DNA of 64,000 nucleotides from an uncultured archaeon (GCA_964646855.1 CAZYHQ010000001.1:3414-67413); one strand, 5' to 3'; counted from the stretch's first letter, positions 8,509 to 24,109 are shown. Numbers and translations: made by a program. Notes: generated by a model from the letters alone, not told the origin.

Positions 8509-8982
8509 ATGAGAATTACGAAAGGTTTTGCCGTAAAAATTTTAGTGATAACATTTTTTGCACTATCGATGGGTTACCTTGAAGCTGTTGTTGTAGTCTA
8601 CTTGAGGGACGCACTTGGCGTAACAGCTACGCAACCCAACACACAAATAGTAATCTCTGATACTGTCTTGCTGATTGAACAATTTAGAGAAGCTGCAACA
8701 ATTATCATGTTGATTGCTGTTGGCTGGTTGTATGGTAAAACGCTTAAGGAAAGGTTTGCAGCGTTCGTTTGGTGTTTTGCTCTTTGGGATCTGTTTTATT
8801 ACGTAAGTTTGTATTTTCTAGTTTCTTGGCCGTTATCAGTGATGGATATTGATCTTTTGTTTTTAATACCAGTCCCTTGGGTTGCTCCTGTGATTGTTCC
8901 TGTTGTGATTTCGGCTGTTGCATTAATTGTTTCTGGATACTTTTTGTTCAAGGAAAACAAACGTTCATTCAAACGAGATTAA
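8509..8982 (+). CDS. hypothetical integral membrane protein
   Basis: 157 aa with 4-5 hydrophobic helices. 3' end convergently overlaps hel308. Confidence 0.35.
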   Translation: MRITKGFAVKILVITFFALSMGYLEAVVVVYLRDALGVTATQPNTQIVISDTVLLIEQFREAATIIMLIAVGWLYGKTLKERFAAFVWCFALWDLFYYVSLYFLVSWPLSVMDIDLLFLIPVPWVAPVIVPVVISAVALIVSGYFLFKENKRSFKRD

Positions 8983-11160
8983 TTTAGTTTGTTCTTCTAT
9001 TTGTTTCATTGACTTCTTTCCAGCCAATTGATCCTTTATTGACTTGGTAGTTTTTACTCCTACCAACCGTTCCAAGCTTTCTACAGGAACTTCTCTGAGT
9101 TTTTGCAGACTCGTCATCCCTGCGGAGTAAAGTCTTCTTGCCCGCACCCTACCCACATCTTTCAGTTTTACCAGAGCCAACAGTTCTCCCTTTATGCCGT
9201 ACTGCATTCGCACACGGACTTTCCCTATCTCTGTCAACAAATCTTTGTGGCCGAGAAGAAGTGCGAGTTCGTGAAGAGAGTACAAAAGCCAGTTGGATGT
9301 TTCCAACCTGTTTCTCAGCTCGCCAGGGGCAACCCGATATTTTGTAAGTATCTGGTTTTCAGTTGCTTCATTAATCCAATCGGAAAACATTACAGATGTT
9401 TTAACTGATTTGAAAAACTCGTCAAATTCCAAGTCCCACTCCTCAGGAATTTTCTGCAAAAATTCTTTCTCTTTTATGACAAGCATGTTGCCGAGGTCTG
9501 CAATTTCTACAGACTTTACAGAAAGAAGTGGCCTCATTTCCAGACTGTTGGAAATTGTTTGGAGAAAGCTGAATTCCGTAATTTGCTTTTTGCTGGCAAC
9601 ATTTAACGATTCAATAAAATTGTGCGCTGTCAAAGGATCGATATAAAGTTCTGACACCCTTCTTCCCATTAGTGTAGGTCTGAGCTTGCCGTCGTCTATA
9701 GAAACAAAACCCCACCCTGCCAGCTGGCTTAGAATATCGAAAATTTTTTCTTCGATAAAAGACATGTCGCCGTACTGGAGAGCGTAAAAAGTTTTTGAAA
9801 AAAACTCTTTCAACGATTCCTGAGATTTTACAAACTCGCTGGCTATCAACGCCATTGTGTGCATGCGCAGGACAGGTTCGATTGCAAGCTTTGATGTGAT
9901 GTCTTCCACTTCACCGTTTATATAACGGTCCGACAAATCACTTGCGTCGTCATCGTTCTTCGCAACTAAAATTGCTTCTCCAAATTCGTCGTACTGCGGC
10001 CTGCCAGCGCGGCCGACCATCTGTTTGTACTCCAGAACAGGAATGTAGTTCGAGCCGACAGAATCGTAGTAGCGTTTTGCATCACGAATTATCACCCTGA
10101 ATGCCGGAAGATTTACTCCAAGTGCAAGAGTAGGAGTTGCAGTAATAACTTTAATCAACCCGTTTCTGAAATTTTCTTCTATGAGCCTCTTTTGTTTGCC
10201 CAGCAGTCCTGCATGATGAAATGCAACACCGCGTCTAACTGTCGCAGCAATTCTTTCGCATTGGTCTGTAGGACTTTCTAGAACGTTCAGAATTTCATTT
10301 GCTATTTTTTCCAGCTGCTCCGACTCAAGTTTGGTAAGAAATGGTTTTGTTGCGCTGGTGAGTGTCGAGGCGAGCTTCTCTGCTGTTTTTCTCGTCGCGA
10401 CAAAGAAAAGGCATTGTTTTTTCAGCAGCAGGGTGTTTTCGGCTATGGCCTCTTCAGTTTCAATCTCAGAAAGTTTGTACCCTTTCTTGCCGTAAAACTG
10501 AATTTGAGAATCGAACGACACGCCTTCGTACAATTTGACAGGACGAAAATCGCTCTCAATCAATGTGGCGTTCAACCACTTGGTAAGCTCAACAGAATTT
10601 TTTACCGTTGCTGACAAGGCGAATATCTGCGCACGCGGGGCAATTTCTTTCAGCTTTGTGAGAAGTATTTCCAAAGTTGCTCCGCGCGAAGAATCGTTCA
10701 ACAAATGAATTTCATCTGTAATTATCAAACCGATTTTGTTGACCCACTGTATATTGTGCCGAAGGAGAGAGTCAAGCTTCTCAGTGGTACAGCATATTAT
10801 GTCGTAATCCGCCAACCAAGGGTCAGAAGAATCAAAATCACCGACGGAAATCGCAACCTTGTACTTGCCTTCGAAAAGATTTTTGAAGTAATTATATTTT
10901 TCATAAGTGAGCGCGACGAGCGGGGCGATGTAAACAATTTTGCATCTGGTTTCCGCCAACTTGTGAATGATTGCGAGAGTTGCGATTAATGTCTTGCCGC
11001 CTGCTGTCGGCAGTGACACAACAAGATTCCTGTCTTTGAACAACCCTTTACGTATGATGTCTGCTTGTGGTGGATACAGTTCAAAAATTTTCTCTTCTTT
11101 GAATTTTTGTACGTATTCTTGGGGAATACCGTATTTCGTCAGCTCATCTACTTTCATCAT
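8965..11160 (-). CDS. hel308: ATP-dependent DNA helicase Hel308 (Hjm; Ski2-like)
   Basis: Walker A (PTAGGKTLIA), DEIH box (ITDEIHLL), helicase motifs SAT and QMVGRAGR, winged-helix/ratchet domains, and a C-terminal HhH (LVKLKDVGRVRARRLYSAGM). 731 aa. Confidence 0.85.
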   Translation of the reverse strand: MMKVDELTKYGIPQEYVQKFKEEKIFELYPPQADIIRKGLFKDRNLVVSLPTAGGKTLIATLAIIHKLAETRCKIVYIAPLVALTYEKYNYFKNLFEGKYKVAISVGDFDSSDPWLADYDIICCTTEKLDSLLRHNIQWVNKIGLIITDEIHLLNDSSRGATLEILLTKLKEIAPRAQIFALSATVKNSVELTKWLNATLIESDFRPVKLYEGVSFDSQIQFYGKKGYKLSEIETEEAIAENTLLLKKQCLFFVATRKTAEKLASTLTSATKPFLTKLESEQLEKIANEILNVLESPTDQCERIAATVRRGVAFHHAGLLGKQKRLIEENFRNGLIKVITATPTLALGVNLPAFRVIIRDAKRYYDSVGSNYIPVLEYKQMVGRAGRPQYDEFGEAILVAKNDDDASDLSDRYINGEVEDITSKLAIEPVLRMHTMALIASEFVKSQESLKEFFSKTFYALQYGDMSFIEEKIFDILSQLAGWGFVSIDDGKLRPTLMGRRVSELYIDPLTAHNFIESLNVASKKQITEFSFLQTISNSLEMRPLLSVKSVEIADLGNMLVIKEKEFLQKIPEEWDLEFDEFFKSVKTSVMFSDWINEATENQILTKYRVAPGELRNRLETSNWLLYSLHELALLLGHKDLLTEIGKVRVRMQYGIKGELLALVKLKDVGRVRARRLYSAGMTSLQKLREVPVESLERLVGVKTTKSIKDQLAGKKSMKQIEEQTKLISFE

Positions 11161-17464: not shown

Positions 17465-18066
17465 TCTTCCGCTTCCGACTCGTCTCTACAGCTTTCGCAC
17501 AGCCATTGATCGTTTTTGTTTTGCAGGGTTGTAAAATAATTTTCGCAGGAATCGCATATGCCGGATGTGATTTCCTCGCGCAGCACGAATGGCTCTTCTT
17601 TCATCTTAAGCCTGTATTCCAGCAAATCCAGCATTTCTGGTGACGTTCGTGCCACGTCGGTTAGCGAGACGACCCCAACCAACTTGTCTTTGTCCACGAC
17701 TGGCAATCTATGAATGTTGTTGAGTTTCATTTTGCGGACCACATCGATTAACTCGTCTTCCGGCCTTACTCCAACGATTGGTGAACTCATTATATTTTTT
17801 ATTTTTATTTTGCTGGCTGTTTTATTTTCAGCAACAATTTTCTGTATCACATCGCTTTCAGACAATGTTCCGATTGGTTTTTTGTTTTTTGTGACAATCA
17901 GGAAACCACGCCTGACTTTTCGAAACAGTTCACCCGCCTCTCTGGCGTTTTTATTAACGTCAATGGAGTAAACTGGTGACGACATTATGTCTCTAACTTT
18001 AATTGGCAAATTATCACCTACAATAATTAATCGTAATTTGAATAATATTAATTGTGGTTCTTGCAT
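17461..18066 (-). CDS. CBS-pair protein with C-terminal zinc ribbon
   Basis: Two CBS motifs followed by CDSCENYF...CESCRDE. Overlaps the upstream CBS gene by 4 nt. Confidence 0.65.
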   Translation of the reverse strand: MQEPQLILFKLRLIIVGDNLPIKVRDIMSSPVYSIDVNKNAREAGELFRKVRRGFLIVTKNKKPIGTLSESDVIQKIVAENKTASKIKIKNIMSSPIVGVRPEDELIDVVRKMKLNNIHRLPVVDKDKLVGVVSLTDVARTSPEMLDLLEYRLKMKEEPFVLREEITSGICDSCENYFTTLQNKNDQWLCESCRDESEAEE

Positions 18067-18436
18067 GCAGGCGAAAAACAGATACAGAAAGGGGGCGAAT
18101 GCCGAACGAGAACTTGCAAAAATATTAAAGGGTCACGCGTTTGCTGTTGCGCGCTCTGCGAAAAGTGGCGGGAGAATTTCCATACCGGATGTCATTGGCG
18201 TCAAAGGTGGGACTGTTTTTGCGTTTGAATGTAAAACATGGAAGAGAAAACCTGTACTGAAACCCGAAGAGTTTGTAGAAATTTCCGATTGGTGTTCGAG
18301 GGCTGGCGCGAATGGCTTTCTGGCGTGGAGAAAAAGGGGCGAGTGGTTGTTTCTAAACATAGTCGATTTGAAAACCAAAGATATTAGCAAAGACGGACTA
18401 AAATTAGAAGATATAATAAATATGGTGCAAAAATGA
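18065..18436 (+). CDS. hjc: Holliday junction resolvase Hjc
   Basis: Archaeal Hjc nuclease pattern (KGANAERELAKILKG...AVARSAKSGG...PDVIGVKGGTVFAFECK). Start trimmed to the ATG at 18065; the track start at 17987 overlaps the opposite-strand CBS gene. Confidence 0.8.
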   Translation: MQAKNRYRKGANAERELAKILKGHAFAVARSAKSGGRISIPDVIGVKGGTVFAFECKTWKRKPVLKPEEFVEISDWCSRAGANGFLAWRKRGEWLFLNIVDLKTKDISKDGLKLEDIINMVQK

Positions 18437-20226: not shown

Positions 20227-21414
20227 ATGGAGAGTTTGGAAATCATAAAAATTTTCATCAACAAAGGATTCCAGTTGGACAAAAAGGCGTTGGATTACTT
20301 GAGTTCCAACCCAGACACGATAAACAATCTCCTTACACGATTAGAATCCATGGAACAAAAACCGTTCATTGTTAATCTAGACATTGTCCAAAGCGCAGAG
20401 ACAAAGGCCGGAGTCTCCGTCATCAAAAAATTTACCGAAGGCAGAAAACCAAAATCTGTCCAAGAAGTAACGCAATTTTTTTTCAACCGATATCAAAAAT
20501 TCATTGAGCTGTTCTCGAACAGGCTCGAGATGGTTAATCTCATTTCAATAAACAAAGTGACAGACAAGACAAAGAAATTCTCTGTTGTAGGTCTGGTTAG
20601 AGAAAAGAGCGAAAGCGACAATTCCATCCTAGTCGAAGACTTCACCGGAGAGACGACACTGATTTTTTCTGACGGCGACAGGAGGTTTGACGAGGCGAAC
20701 ACGGATGATGTTTTGGGGTTTGTCTGCGAAAACGACAACGGTGCGAATTCAGTCAAAAACATAGTCTACCCAGACGTGCCTGTAAAAAAGGACACCGCCC
20801 GCACAAACGAAAACATAACATGCTACTTTTTCCCCGACCTGCACATTGACGCTGAAAATTTCGATGAAGAAAGATACAAACTAATGTTGAAGGAAGTCCA
20901 TTCCGACAGCGGCACAAAAATAATTTTTGTTTTAGGAGGGATTTCGCTCAACAAGGAACAAATATCAAAAGTAATCTCCGACCTACCAAAGGACGCATCC
21001 AAAGTAATAATGGTTTCTTCGGAAGATGCCGATTTTGAAATCGGAAGCAACACACTAAAAATTGGTGATCCGTGCGTAGTCGGCATCGGTCCTGTGAAAA
21101 TTTTCGTGTCACACGGCAACCTGTTTGAAAAATATATCAATGATTCGGGCAAACTTCCTGCAGAAACCCTGCTCGGTCTGGTGAGAAAACGTCACCTAAA
21201 CCCGAGGTTTGAACCAGACAAGAAAATATACGACGAAGACCCGTATTTTCTCGACACAATTCCGGACATATTTGCAATCGGGCACTTCCATAAACCAGGT
21301 CTTGTCAATTACAAAGGCGTAACAGTTTTGTCCACAGGCAGCCTAAGCGAGAATCCTATATTCTGGAAAATAAACTTAAGAACCAGAGAAAACTTAAAAA
21401 TTGATTTAACATAA
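20227..21414 (+). CDS. DP1-like / DNA polymerase B-subunit-like protein (calcineurin-like phosphoesterase fold, possibly degenerate active site)
   Basis: C-terminal region carries phosphoesterase motif I (FFPDLHID) and motif V (GHFHKPG). The positions expected for GDxxD and GNHD read VLGGISLN and VSSEDAD. N-terminal ~190 aa are non-catalytic. Located immediately upstream of polB. Confidence 0.5.
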   Translation: MESLEIIKIFINKGFQLDKKALDYLSSNPDTINNLLTRLESMEQKPFIVNLDIVQSAETKAGVSVIKKFTEGRKPKSVQEVTQFFFNRYQKFIELFSNRLEMVNLISINKVTDKTKKFSVVGLVREKSESDNSILVEDFTGETTLIFSDGDRRFDEANTDDVLGFVCENDNGANSVKNIVYPDVPVKKDTARTNENITCYFFPDLHIDAENFDEERYKLMLKEVHSDSGTKIIFVLGGISLNKEQISKVISDLPKDASKVIMVSSEDADFEIGSNTLKIGDPCVVGIGPVKIFVSHGNLFEKYINDSGKLPAETLLGLVRKRHLNPRFEPDKKIYDEDPYFLDTIPDIFAIGHFHKPGLVNYKGVTVLSTGSLSENPIFWKINLRTRENLKIDLT

Positions 21415-21421
21415 GATATTT

Positions 21422-24109
21422 ATGGAACTAGAATTTCAGCTACTGGATTGCGATTACGTCATTGTCGACAACCTGCCTGTTGTGAGAGTTTTCGGCAAAA
21501 CAGAAAGCGGCCAGACAACATGCGTGTTTTTCGAAAACTACTACCCGTATTTTTACATCCTGCCAAGAAAACAATCCGAATCAAGTGTTGTAAATTTCCT
21601 GAAATCCAAATTCAACAATCTGGTTTTAGACATCTCAATGGTAAGCAGATTCCTTCCAATAGGTTTCAGCGACGAAAAAACACAGTTGATGCTTGTAAAA
21701 TTACGCGACCCTTCGCAAGTGCCAACTGTCAGGGACGAGCTGCTCAAACAAGATTTTGTCCAAGAAATTTTCGAGGCCGACATACTTTTCAAATACAGGT
21801 TCATGATTGACAAAGATTTGGCCGGAATGAGATGGTACCGCGCCTCTGGAGAAGCCCTGAAAACAACAACTGTCAAAGCAGACAAGGTGATACGGGTCAA
21901 GAATCTGCAGAAAATCGAAAAACAAAATTCGAATCTAAAGTATGTCGCGATAGATATCGAAATTGCAACAGACAAGGAAGTTCTCATAGATTACAAAAAA
22001 AATCAGATATCGATGATCAGCATGGCATTTTCTGAACCGTTCGAGGGAAAGGAAAATCTGGTCTTGATAGCAAAGAAAGTCAAAACCGCAAACAACAACG
22101 TGATTTCCTTCAAGGACGAGGCAGAGATGCTGCAAGAATTTGCAGACACCATGGAAAGATTCGACCCAGACATCATCACAGGTTACAACATCAACGGCTT
22201 CGACATGCCTTACATACTCGAAAGACTCGCAATTGCAAAAGTTCCAAGGACAATCGGCAGATGCAACCAGAAACCAGCGATGTCCAAAAAATTTGGCAAC
22301 TATTACAAAAATGTTATAACAGGCAGAATTGTCGCAGACGTTTACGATCTAATCAGAGAATCCGTTAGCAAAGGATTCCTGCGACTGAAAAGATACGGAT
22401 TGGGAGATGTTTCTAAAGAACTGCTGGGCGAAGAAAAAGTCGATGTCGTGCACAGCGAAATCTCAAAATTCTGGATTGGCGACAGCGAGCAGTTTTCGAA
22501 ATTAATAGAATACGCAAGAAAAGACTCGCAGCTTGCATTAAAACTACTGATGGAAAAGAACATGCTAGACAAGTTTTTCGAGCTTTCAAAAATTTCAGGA
22601 CTGCTGCTCCAAGATGTTTTAGATGGCGGCGAGGCCAACAGAGTTGAAAACCTGTTGTTGAAAGAATTCAACAAGGAAGGATACGTCCTACCACTCAGAC
22701 CGTCTTCGCCAGAAATTCTGAACAGGAAAATAAAAAGAGAAGCGGAAGGTCTCAAGGGAGCTCTTGTCCTAGAGCCCAAAATCGGCCTGCACACAAACTG
22801 CACAGTCTATATGGACTTCAAAGCAATGTACCCATCGATTTTTATTTCGTACAATATTTGTCCGACTACTCTGCTGCTCAAGGAGAAGCAGATCGAACAC
22901 ATGGAAACTCCGAACGGCGCGAAATTCGTTTCCAAAAAAATTCGCGTCGGCATAATCCCGAAAATAGTTGAGCATCTTATTGAGGAAAGAGATTTGGTAC
23001 GAAACCAGATGAAAAACTCTTCGGACGATTTTGCGAGGCGACTTCTGGATGCAAAACAATACGCGTTAAAGATCATGGCGAACTCGTTCTACGGATACAC
23101 CGGCTACGTGAGGGCGAGGCTATATTTATTGGACATTGCCAATGCGATCACCGGTTGCGGCAGGTTCCTCATACAAAAAACCAAAGAAATAGTTGAAGCC
23201 GACAAAAATTTCGAAGTGATTTACGGGGACACAGATTCTATAATGGTCAAGACTAGCACAAAAAATCCGGACGAGGCGTTTTCAACAGGCGCAATAATCG
23301 AATCAAAAATAAACGAAGAGTTGCGTGGAATTGTGCAGATGAAGATTGAAAATGTTTTTAGAACGCTTCTGATTCTCTCTAAAAAGAGATATGCGGGCCT
23401 GTCATTGGAAAAAATAAACGGCTCATCGAGGGAAAAAATTTTAATGAAGGGAATCGAGACCATCAGGAGGGACTGGTGCGACCTCACGAGCGAAACGCTC
23501 TTCGGAGTTTTGGAAATAATGCTGAAAGAGGGGGATCCCAAAAAAGCAGTCAGATACGTAAAGACAGTACTCGTCGATTTGGAAAAAAACAAAATACCTG
23601 TCGAAAAACTCGTGATAACAAAAAGCATTTCCAAACCACTGAAGGAATACAAGGGAATCCAGCCACACATCGAGCTTCTGAAAAAACTGCGCAAGCGTGC
23701 GCCTGCAGGCTCGCCAGGCATCGGGGACAGAATAGGGTTCGTCATAACTCAGGGTTTGCAGCTCATGTCTGACAGGGCAGAGGATCCTGAATATGTAAAG
23801 GCAAACAATCTAAAAATCGATTCTAAATATTACATGGAAGGGCAGCTGTTGCCGCCGCTGGAAAGAGTTTTCGAAGCGATTGGCATCGGCAAGACAGACA
23901 TATTGAACGTCGGCAGGCAGATGATTTTGTCGGACGCAATTAAAAACGGAAACTCAAATTCAAAGAGTCACGTGCTGACGGACTTTGATGGTTTTGTCTG
24001 CGGCAAGTGCAATACGAATTTCAGGCGCCCGCCGCTCGTCGGAAAATGCAGGTGCGGCGGCGAACTTATGTTTTTCTCCGGACAAAACAGGTCAACAGTG
24101 ATAATGTGA
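21422..24109 (+). CDS. polB: family B DNA polymerase with C-terminal Cys4 module
   Basis: Exo I (YVAIDIEIAT), Exo II (YNINGFDMPYI), Exo III (YARKDSQLAL), Pol A (DFKAMYPSI), Pol B (KIMANSFYGYTGY) and Pol C (YGDTDS). C-terminal CGKCNTNF...GKCRCGG. Confidence 0.9.
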   Translation: MELEFQLLDCDYVIVDNLPVVRVFGKTESGQTTCVFFENYYPYFYILPRKQSESSVVNFLKSKFNNLVLDISMVSRFLPIGFSDEKTQLMLVKLRDPSQVPTVRDELLKQDFVQEIFEADILFKYRFMIDKDLAGMRWYRASGEALKTTTVKADKVIRVKNLQKIEKQNSNLKYVAIDIEIATDKEVLIDYKKNQISMISMAFSEPFEGKENLVLIAKKVKTANNNVISFKDEAEMLQEFADTMERFDPDIITGYNINGFDMPYILERLAIAKVPRTIGRCNQKPAMSKKFGNYYKNVITGRIVADVYDLIRESVSKGFLRLKRYGLGDVSKELLGEEKVDVVHSEISKFWIGDSEQFSKLIEYARKDSQLALKLLMEKNMLDKFFELSKISGLLLQDVLDGGEANRVENLLLKEFNKEGYVLPLRPSSPEILNRKIKREAEGLKGALVLEPKIGLHTNCTVYMDFKAMYPSIFISYNICPTTLLLKEKQIEHMETPNGAKFVSKKIRVGIIPKIVEHLIEERDLVRNQMKNSSDDFARRLLDAKQYALKIMANSFYGYTGYVRARLYLLDIANAITGCGRFLIQKTKEIVEADKNFEVIYGDTDSIMVKTSTKNPDEAFSTGAIIESKINEELRGIVQMKIENVFRTLLILSKKRYAGLSLEKINGSSREKILMKGIETIRRDWCDLTSETLFGVLEIMLKEGDPKKAVRYVKTVLVDLEKNKIPVEKLVITKSISKPLKEYKGIQPHIELLKKLRKRAPAGSPGIGDRIGFVITQGLQLMSDRAEDPEYVKANNLKIDSKYYMEGQLLPPLERVFEAIGIGKTDILNVGRQMILSDAIKNGNSNSKSHVLTDFDGFVCGKCNTNFRRPPLVGKCRCGGELMFFSGQNRSTVIM

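Follow-up and report, generated by a model that had tools for sequence, protein, structure and literature searches.

The closest described relatives of the system considered here are family-B DNA polymerases (PolBs) that Kazlauskas et al. (2020, Nucleic Acids Research; PMC7544198) placed in group B6, among them 'B6-aenigma1', which has one C-terminal metal motif most like the zinc motif of DP2, the large subunit of PolD. The same study reported that DP2 is absent from most Aenigmarchaeota, described a group of inactivated versions of the PolD small subunit DP1, and proposed that the B6-aenigma1 PolB replaced DP2. A later study (Nature Ecology & Evolution 2025; PMC12680538) found Aenigmatarchaeota and Baldrarchaeia to be the only lineages that keep DP1 without DP2, presented AlphaFold 3 and yeast two-hybrid evidence that in both lineages DP1 binds a PolB bearing DP2's C-terminal domain (CTD) ('PolB-DP2CTD'), described the CTD of Aenigmatarchaeota as shorter and 'degenerate', and reassigned 'B6-aenigma2' to contamination from Baldrarchaeia. 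Here we analyse a 64-kb stretch of DNA from an uncultured archaeon (GCA_964646855.1, CAZYHQ010000001.1:3414-67413; hereafter the window), in which a gene for a DP1-like protein of 395 aa is followed by a gene for a PolB of 895 aa that carries a tail of this kind. Homologs of both proteins are labelled Candidatus Aenigmatarchaeota/Aenigmarchaeota, a DPANN phylum, and the two proteins themselves are found unchanged in NCBI, encoded on a contig of 134 kb. The arrangement was already published in 2020 and 2025 (PMC7544198, PMC12680538), and the window is one more instance of it.

We found that the window pair agrees with B6-aenigma1 and the DP1 group 'Aenigma_GB_GCA_002789635-like' in phylum, in the length of the PolB (~895 aa), in its single Cys4 motif like Zn-III of DP2, in its inactivated DP1 partner, in having no DP2 within the 64 kb and, as sequence and fold matches suggest, in delta-like affinities of its PolB core; nothing essential differs. 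What the window adds to the main-text accounts of B6-aenigma1 is a PolB placed in the exact slot of DP2 within a tight operon, and a conserved winged-helix gene upstream; neither this adjacency and operon arrangement nor the winged-helix gene is mentioned in the main texts of PMC7544198 and PMC12680538. We assign a probability of roughly 85% to the reading that the pair is a Pol delta-like, two-subunit polymerase in which PolB docks on a catalytically dead DP1 through a zinc finger derived from DP2. An earlier note, made from the sequence of the window, had interpreted the locus as a PolB paired through its Cys-rich tail with a B-subunit-like protein, and this interpretation is supported, agreeing as it does with the conclusions of both papers for Aenigmatarchaeota.

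Compared with canonical PolD (P. abyssi; 6HMS/6T8H), the window pair has a homologous small subunit with N-terminal domain and OB and phosphoesterase (PDE) folds, a homologous alpha1'/Zn-III docking module with an RRxP loop, and the same gene order, small subunit before catalytic subunit. It differs in that its core is a family-B polymerase rather than the two-barrel DP2, in that the nuclease site of its DP1 is dead, and in that the helices after Zn-III and the C-terminal PCNA-binding (PIP) box of DP2 are missing from the tail. With the eukaryotic polymerases delta, alpha, epsilon and zeta (6TNY, 4Y97, 5VBN) it shares a PolB with a Cys-rich C-terminal extension, an inactivated DP1-derived B-subunit and proofreading located in the PolB exonuclease domain, and among solved structures none is closer to the PolB core than Pol delta; however, the window tail has one metal module (CysB/Zn-III-like) and no CysA, and it lacks the iron-sulphur cluster signature and the intervening helical bundle. 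The PolB3-DP2CTD of Baldrarchaeia (formerly 'B6-aenigma2') is likewise a PolB fused to a DP1-binding, DP2-derived CTD in a lineage without DP2, but there the CTD has two metal motifs, is longer and is predicted to fold in a eukaryote-like way (PMC12680538).

The earlier note had placed a DP1-like gene immediately before a complete PolB, and both genes are indeed present, consecutive on the + strand and separated by a spacer measured at 7 nt (Table 1). The 895-aa protein matches the Pfam models DNA_pol_B (1e-115) and exo1 (exonuclease domain, 2.5e-37), and the exonuclease and polymerase motifs said to be intact were all located: Exo I (D178-I-E), Exo II (N256..FD) and Exo III (Y364..D368, which lies beyond residues 115-327), followed by motif A (D465..YPS), motif B (K550..NSFYG), motif C (YGDTDS at 601) and KKRY at 654. 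It is 55-93% identical to hundreds of PolBs labelled Aenigmatarchaeota. Its best sequence match in the PDB is human Pol delta (6s1m, 1.6e-107), the bit scores being 364 for human Pol delta vs 362 for Thermococcales PolB. Fold comparison points the same way: the structural model (predicted local distance difference test, pLDDT, 83) has Pol delta for all of its top five matches (TMq, a template modelling (TM) score, of 0.76-0.79), and Thermococcales PolB falls below these (TMq ~0.72). Of three cysteines that we take to be Delta-like, just the one after motif A (N-I-C480-P-T-T) is present. The window PolB is free of inteins; one or two inteins (Intein_splicing + LAGLIDADG) lie in the polymerase domain of the Aenigmatarchaeota homologs P0125, P0153, P0156, P0166, P0183, P0198, P0202 and P0209.

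The C-terminal tail provides a first line of evidence. A search with the last 122 residues divided the protein cleanly in two: residues 780-823 align where the thumb ends in Pol zeta, Pol delta and archaeal PolBs, and residues 826-884 align with residues 1092-1148 of P. abyssi DP2 (E = 1e-5); the PolB/DP2 junction maps to about residue 824-826. The terminal pattern CGKC…(12)…CRCGG reported earlier is found as C860-G-K-C863, 12 residues and C876-R-C878-G-G, and its four cysteines are kept in 120 of 120 homologs, with the spacing C-x2-C-x12-C-x(1-2)-C. When a profile of 22 tails was compared with the PDB, it matched Zn-III of DP2 (6knb_B residues 1127-1157 at 9.8e-9; 6hms_B residues 1119-1149 at 2.1e-7), with generic zinc fingers weaker by orders of magnitude, and each of the 22 tails is recognised by the four NCBIfam DP2 models. 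With Cys4 conserved in 120 of 120 homologs and a tail-profile match to DP2 Zn-III at E = 1e-8, the earlier observation is far above chance. Locally, the resemblance is striking between the window segment C-G-K-C-N-T-N-F-R-R-P-P-L-V-G-K-C-R-C-G-G and a segment of 22 residues in P. abyssi DP2, and conservation of R869, P871 and L872 in the PolB family is 90% or higher. In the cryo-electron microscopy structure of PolD, the corresponding KxRRxP loop of DP2 (R1131/R1132) enters an acidic groove at the interface of the OB and PDE domains of DP1 (PMC6355029).

The link between tail and DP2 is based on the profile, NCBIfam and tblastn results; a single-sequence phmmer search with the tail against 1.84 billion representatives returned only PolBs and fragments, DP2 not being reached at such a database size. 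No eukaryotic CTD was retrieved from the PDB by the tail profile, and Pfam zf-DPOE matches just 4 of the 22 tails (best E-value 0.0085). The tail has four cysteines only, and not the eukaryotic combination of CysA and CysB with a helical region between them; it is a single-Cys4 extension most like DP2 Zn-III. The comparison with eukaryotic polymerases drawn in the earlier note thus needs a nuance, in that the tail is a DP2-type finger with a single Cys4 and not a two-module CysA/CysB domain. In the PolB model, residues 830-849 have pLDDT <50 and a small beta module at residues 857-891 has pLDDT of ~73-84, a picture that we read as a probable zinc ribbon on a flexible linker.

Within the linker (PolB residues ~831-840, window 23912-23941) there is a conserved pattern, G-[KR]-Q-x-[LI]-L-x-D-x-I, which takes the form of a canonical PIP box in 3 of 22 relatives (QTLLKDLF, QMLLTSLF and QTLLTTLF). 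In the window the motif, Q833..L836, is only weakly PIP-like and, judged by its sequence, could be a degenerate site for PCNA binding. Its origin is ambiguous, since this stretch of the linker can be aligned with the end of Thermococcales PolB as well as with helix alpha1' of DP2.

The alternative that survives best is that the Cys4 finger is a generic zinc ribbon serving contacts with DNA, PCNA or primase, and that the pairing of the two genes is inherited synteny with no complex behind it. Zn-III of DP2 also touches the nascent duplex in PolD (PMC6355029), the window tail is shorter than the CTD of DP2, and the weak PIP-like motif of the linker is canonical in those three relatives, all of which fit such a role. 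However, the similarity is specific to DP2 Zn-III and extends to the RRxP docking loop, generic ribbons scoring far worse; a dead DP1 maintained by purifying selection beside PolB (see below) must have a reason to persist; and the yeast two-hybrid result for the Aenigmatarchaeota pair was positive (PMC12680538). We consider this alternative improbable.

The gene order around DP1 provides a second line of evidence. A scan of species-representative genomes with a nine-sequence alignment yielded 14 Aenigmatarchaeota loci with a full-length member of the DP1-like family, and in all 14 of these other loci the next gene on the same strand is PolB, with the tail present wherever the contig permits. 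The gap between the two genes is 3-9 nt in 12 of the 13 loci in which it was measured, and a close relative (L060, GCA_053536775.1) has the identical DP1-like/PolB arrangement. As a control set we used the 37 canonical DP1 loci of other archaea found in the same scan. In 17 of these, the tail was the only part of the window PolB to find a match, which lies on the strand of DP1 and 3-5 kb downstream of it; in the three control loci that were examined, a full DP2 begins within a few nt of DP1 and has the tail-like segment at its 3' end. This is direct synteny evidence that PolB sits at the position of DP2 in the ancestral DP1-DP2 operon, and it suggests that the catalytic body of DP2 was replaced in place while the 3' end of DP2 was kept.

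The window does not have the canonical PolD organisation, with a two-barrel DP2 subunit beside DP1; PolB lies downstream instead. The absence of DP2 from the window, as the earlier note had it, is borne out by tblastn with three DP2 proteins: these match only the PolB tail (23876-24073, E ~1e-7), and their N-terminal, central and catalytic domains find nothing in the 64 kb. Nor is there a DP2 in the flanks of the 14 related Aenigmatarchaeota loci. It could still be argued that the 395-aa protein is the small subunit of an ordinary PolD whose DP2 is encoded elsewhere, and that PolB is an independent enzyme which merely shares the operon: the view is limited to 64 kb of the genome, and DP1 and DP2 are not adjacent in every archaeon, several Thermoplasmata control loci having no DP2 tail downstream of DP1. 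Against this, the DP1-binding Zn-III module is carried by PolB itself, the pair is adjacent in 14 of 14 other genomes with DP2 at none of those loci, there would be no precedent for a PolD whose proofreading subunit is dead, and the literature has DP2 absent from Aenigmatarchaeota (PMC7544198, PMC12680538). We regard this explanation as very unlikely.

The third line of evidence comes from the DP1-like protein. It has no significant match in Pfam; the NCBIfam models for DP1, the PolD small subunit, match it at 2e-39, and its PDB sequence matches are DP1 chains only (best 6knb_A, 1.6e-17). The AlphaFold2 model, built with 48 family sequences, is of high confidence (pLDDT 90.5, predicted TM score 0.81) and includes an OB domain. 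In a Foldseek search with this model, archaeal DP1 ranked first (E of 1e-24 to 1e-19, TM 0.63-0.71, the 1e-24 match having TM 0.70), followed by the B-subunits of eukaryotic Pol epsilon, delta, zeta and alpha (1e-19 to 1e-10), past which there is a steep fall to LpxH (TM 0.30). The protein thus has the OB and calcineurin-like PDE folds of the DP1/eukaryotic B-subunit superfamily, and the description of it as DP1- or B-subunit-like is confirmed by NCBIfam, PDB and Foldseek alike. Better alignment to Mre11/SbcD-type nucleases, which would have spoken for a different identity, was not seen: there is no Mre11/SbcD among the PDB sequence matches at E up to 10 and none in the top 50 fold matches, and the protein has neither the intact motifs nor the OB-free architecture of such a nuclease.

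Alignment with canonical DP1s also upheld what had been said of the PDE motifs. Motifs I (PD204LH206) and V (GH353FH355) are present, as is motif IV, which the earlier note did not list, whereas the positions of GDxxD (motif II) and GNHD (motif III) are substituted, reading GGI and SSED. In motif II, Gly stands for the metal-ligand Asp, and the second Asp is deleted together with a 19-residue loop; across the family, the first Asp is present in 8 of 23 members and the second is deleted in 22 of 23. In motif III, the Asn ligand and the proton-donor His are both gone, the His being present in 0/23 family members and the Asn in 3/23. The counterparts of this His are H451 in P. abyssi DP1 and H85 in Mre11, the proton donor that nuclease activity requires (PMC4996933). 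With motifs II and III destroyed, the protein does not retain the full set of catalytic residues, GNHD His included, that an active DP1 proofreading exonuclease has in motifs I-V, and the inactivation of the PDE site resembles that of eukaryotic B subunits, as had been suggested. Each of the remaining PDE ligands is present in just ~8-15 of 23 family members; this patchiness indicates that the catalytic site is not under selection.

The gene itself is under purifying selection. Measured against the closest relative, its ratio of nonsynonymous to synonymous substitution rates (dN/dS) comes to 0.13, or 0.11 when the PDE part is taken by itself, compared with 0.07 for PolB and 0.05-0.08 for neighbouring genes. 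Since the active site is lost and the gene is nonetheless maintained, we infer that the inactivated DP1 is held for a non-catalytic role, like the eukaryotic B-subunits. That the 395-aa protein is instead an active Mre11/DP1-type nuclease with a modified metal site and an extra role as an exonuclease or in end processing is likewise very unlikely: although D204, H206, H296, H353 and H355 are intact in the window protein, it has lost the Asp of motif II, the Asn of motif III and the essential proton-donor His, along with the loops beside them, about half of the family has lost even motifs I, IV and V despite purifying selection, so that the selected function is not catalysis, and there is no Mre11/SbcD similarity in sequence or fold.

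Several points weigh against a Pol delta-like pair docked through the DP2-derived finger. In real DP2s, Zn-III is succeeded by ~60 residues of helices and by a C-terminal PIP box (QExLxxWF), all of which the tail is without; as the helices beyond Zn-III also contact DP1 in PolD, the interface would therefore be smaller than that of PolD. The Aenigmatarchaeota CTD has moreover been termed 'degenerate', with a different predicted structure (PMC12680538). The persistence of motifs I, IV and V in the window protein makes residual metal binding possible, with 64 kb of the genome seen, DP2 may be encoded outside it, and the contact between the DP1-like protein and the PolB tail is one that we infer, for these two proteins, from their sequences.

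In the mechanism that we propose, the locus would encode a replicative DNA polymerase with two subunits, eukaryote-like in its make-up, which presumably serves an Aenigmatarchaeota (DPANN) archaeon as its main replicase. The catalytic subunit would be a proofreading-proficient PolB whose last ~60 residues represent the alpha1'/Zn-III module of DP2, and the zinc ribbon with its RRxP loop would dock on the co-transcribed DP1-like protein, in its OB/PDE groove. The nuclease site of the DP1-like protein may have been lost because the exonuclease domain of PolB now does the proofreading, the protein being retained as a structural or regulatory B-subunit. The core of DP2 would have been exchanged for PolB in place, perhaps by recombination, with retention of the 3' end of DP2.

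A further gene may belong to this unit. Directly upstream of the DP1-like gene lies a gene for a protein of 73 aa that consists of a stand-alone winged-helix domain (Pfam TBPIP/Hop2 winged helix at 24.4 bits, cutoff 22.8); the same Pfam domain is matched by 13 of 17 members of the winged-helix family. A homolog, usually of 85 aa, is found directly upstream of the DP1-like gene in 13 of the 13 Aenigmatarchaeota loci that have upstream sequence, at a distance of 0-16 nt in eight of them (the loci with the upstream gene are the window, L001-L012, L016 and L060), and in none of the 37 control DP1 loci. The dN/dS of the gene is 0.05. Its family numbers at least 432 proteins, whose annotations do not go beyond hypothetical protein or predicted transcriptional regulator. 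This synteny suggests that the winged-helix gene is part of the polymerase unit, and its product may be an autoregulator of the operon or a third subunit.

Pol32/p66 has an N-terminal winged-helix domain that binds the B-subunit of Pol delta, and we propose this domain as the functional analogue of the archaeal protein. By this analogy, the three genes (winged-helix, DP1-like and PolB-Zn-III) would form an operon in which the ~73-85-aa protein is the third subunit of a Pol delta-like enzyme, a tentative possibility that we consider doubtful; alternatively, the protein could be a transcriptional regulator of the operon and nothing else. The association of the RPA2 winged-helix domain with PolD was also considered as an analogy and was rejected, as the RPA2 domain binds DP2 and not DP1.

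The tail search also retrieved three divergent PolBs of ~780-796 aa (P0196, P0205 and P0213) with the same DP2-Zn-III-like finger, C..C...RRPPL.G.C.CGG. The genes for P0196 and P0205 lie on short virus- or mobile-element-like contigs (loci L052, 807-3158, and L053, 2317-4707) that also encode ThyX, UDG, a PD-(D/E)xK nuclease and a P-loop kinase, and there is no DP1-like gene on these short contigs. Such elements may borrow the DP1 of their host, or they may be a mobile source of B6 polymerases. In scans of IMG/VR, neither a protein query nor two degenerate finger patterns brought up more than chance matches, and a viral origin of the finger-bearing PolBs is thus not established.

Among the other genes of the window (Table 1), the stand-alone metallophosphoesterase is kept ~1-2 kb upstream of the polymerase operon in 12 of the 14 Aenigmatarchaeota loci. 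By eye its motifs are atypical, with G-C-I-H at motif I and G-S-W-D for GNHD. Its conservation may reflect general synteny only, LigT and CBS genes being kept there too. Hjc is present in the close relative L060 and was not detected by tblastn in the 14 more distant loci. A cluster of RHS and Tc-toxin-like genes is polymorphic-toxin-like, which is unusual for a DPANN archaeon.

Table 1. Features of the polymerase locus and of other genes in the window; positions are counted from the first nucleotide of the window
Feature	Position	Strand	Remarks
Small winged-helix protein gene, 73 aa	19939..20160	+	66 nt upstream of the DP1-like gene
DP1-like protein, 395 aa	20227..21414	+	N-terminal helical domain, OB fold, inactivated calcineurin-like PDE domain
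PDE motif I, kept, P203-D204-L-H206	20833..20844	+	Aligned with canonical DP1s
PDE motif II remnant, G237-G238-I239 vs GDxxD	20935..20943	+	Aligned with canonical DP1s
PDE motif III remnant, S264-S265-E266-D267 vs GNHD	21016..21027	+	Aligned with canonical DP1s
PDE motif IV, kept, S295-H296-G297	21109..21117	+	Aligned with canonical DP1s
PDE motif V, kept, G352-H353-F-H355	21280..21291	+	Aligned with canonical DP1s
Spacer GATATTT between DP1-like gene and PolB, 7 nt	21415..21421	+	Operonic spacing
Family-B DNA polymerase, 895 aa, with DP2-derived C-terminal tail	21422..24109	+	B6-aenigma1 / 'PolB-DP2CTD'
3'-5' exonuclease domain, residues 115-327, Exo I and II intact	21764..22402	+	Pfam, motif check
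Palm/fingers/thumb region, residues 396-820	22607..23881	+	Motifs A, B, C and KKRY
DP2-derived C-terminal module, residues 826-884	23897..24073	+	Helix/linker, then zinc ribbon
Cys4 zinc-binding motif, C860-x2-C863-x12-C876-x-C878	23999..24055	+	Motif check
R868-R869-P870-P871 loop, equivalent to KxRRxP (R1131/R1132) of P. abyssi DP2 Zn-III	24023..24034	+	Alignment
Hel308-type helicase	8965-11160	-	~9 kb upstream of the polymerase operon
Hjc Holliday-junction resolvase	17987-18436	+	1.8 kb upstream of the polymerase operon
Stand-alone calcineurin-like metallophosphoesterase, 225 aa	18433-19110	+	Pfam 1.3e-14
RHS+PKD protein, 738 aa	55615-57831	-	After the 188-aa open reading frame
Open reading frame, 188 aa	58024-58590	-	No Pfam match; after the 1662-aa protein
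SpvB + TcdB-middle + FG-GAP + RHS-repeat protein, 1662 aa	58587-63575	-	Tc-toxin TcB/TcC-like

The evolutionary significance of this pairing has already been recognised and partly tested (PMC7544198, PMC12680538), and the window adds an instance rather than a discovery. What may be useful to specialists is the synteny that places PolB in the slot of DP2, together with the unnamed winged-helix gene at the head of the operon, which can be tested as a regulator or a subunit. On our reading, this living archaeal pairing is analogous to the step from which the eukaryotic replicative polymerases arose, a step in which a family-B core took the docking tail of the PolD large subunit and the PolD small subunit was kept as an inactivated B-subunit.

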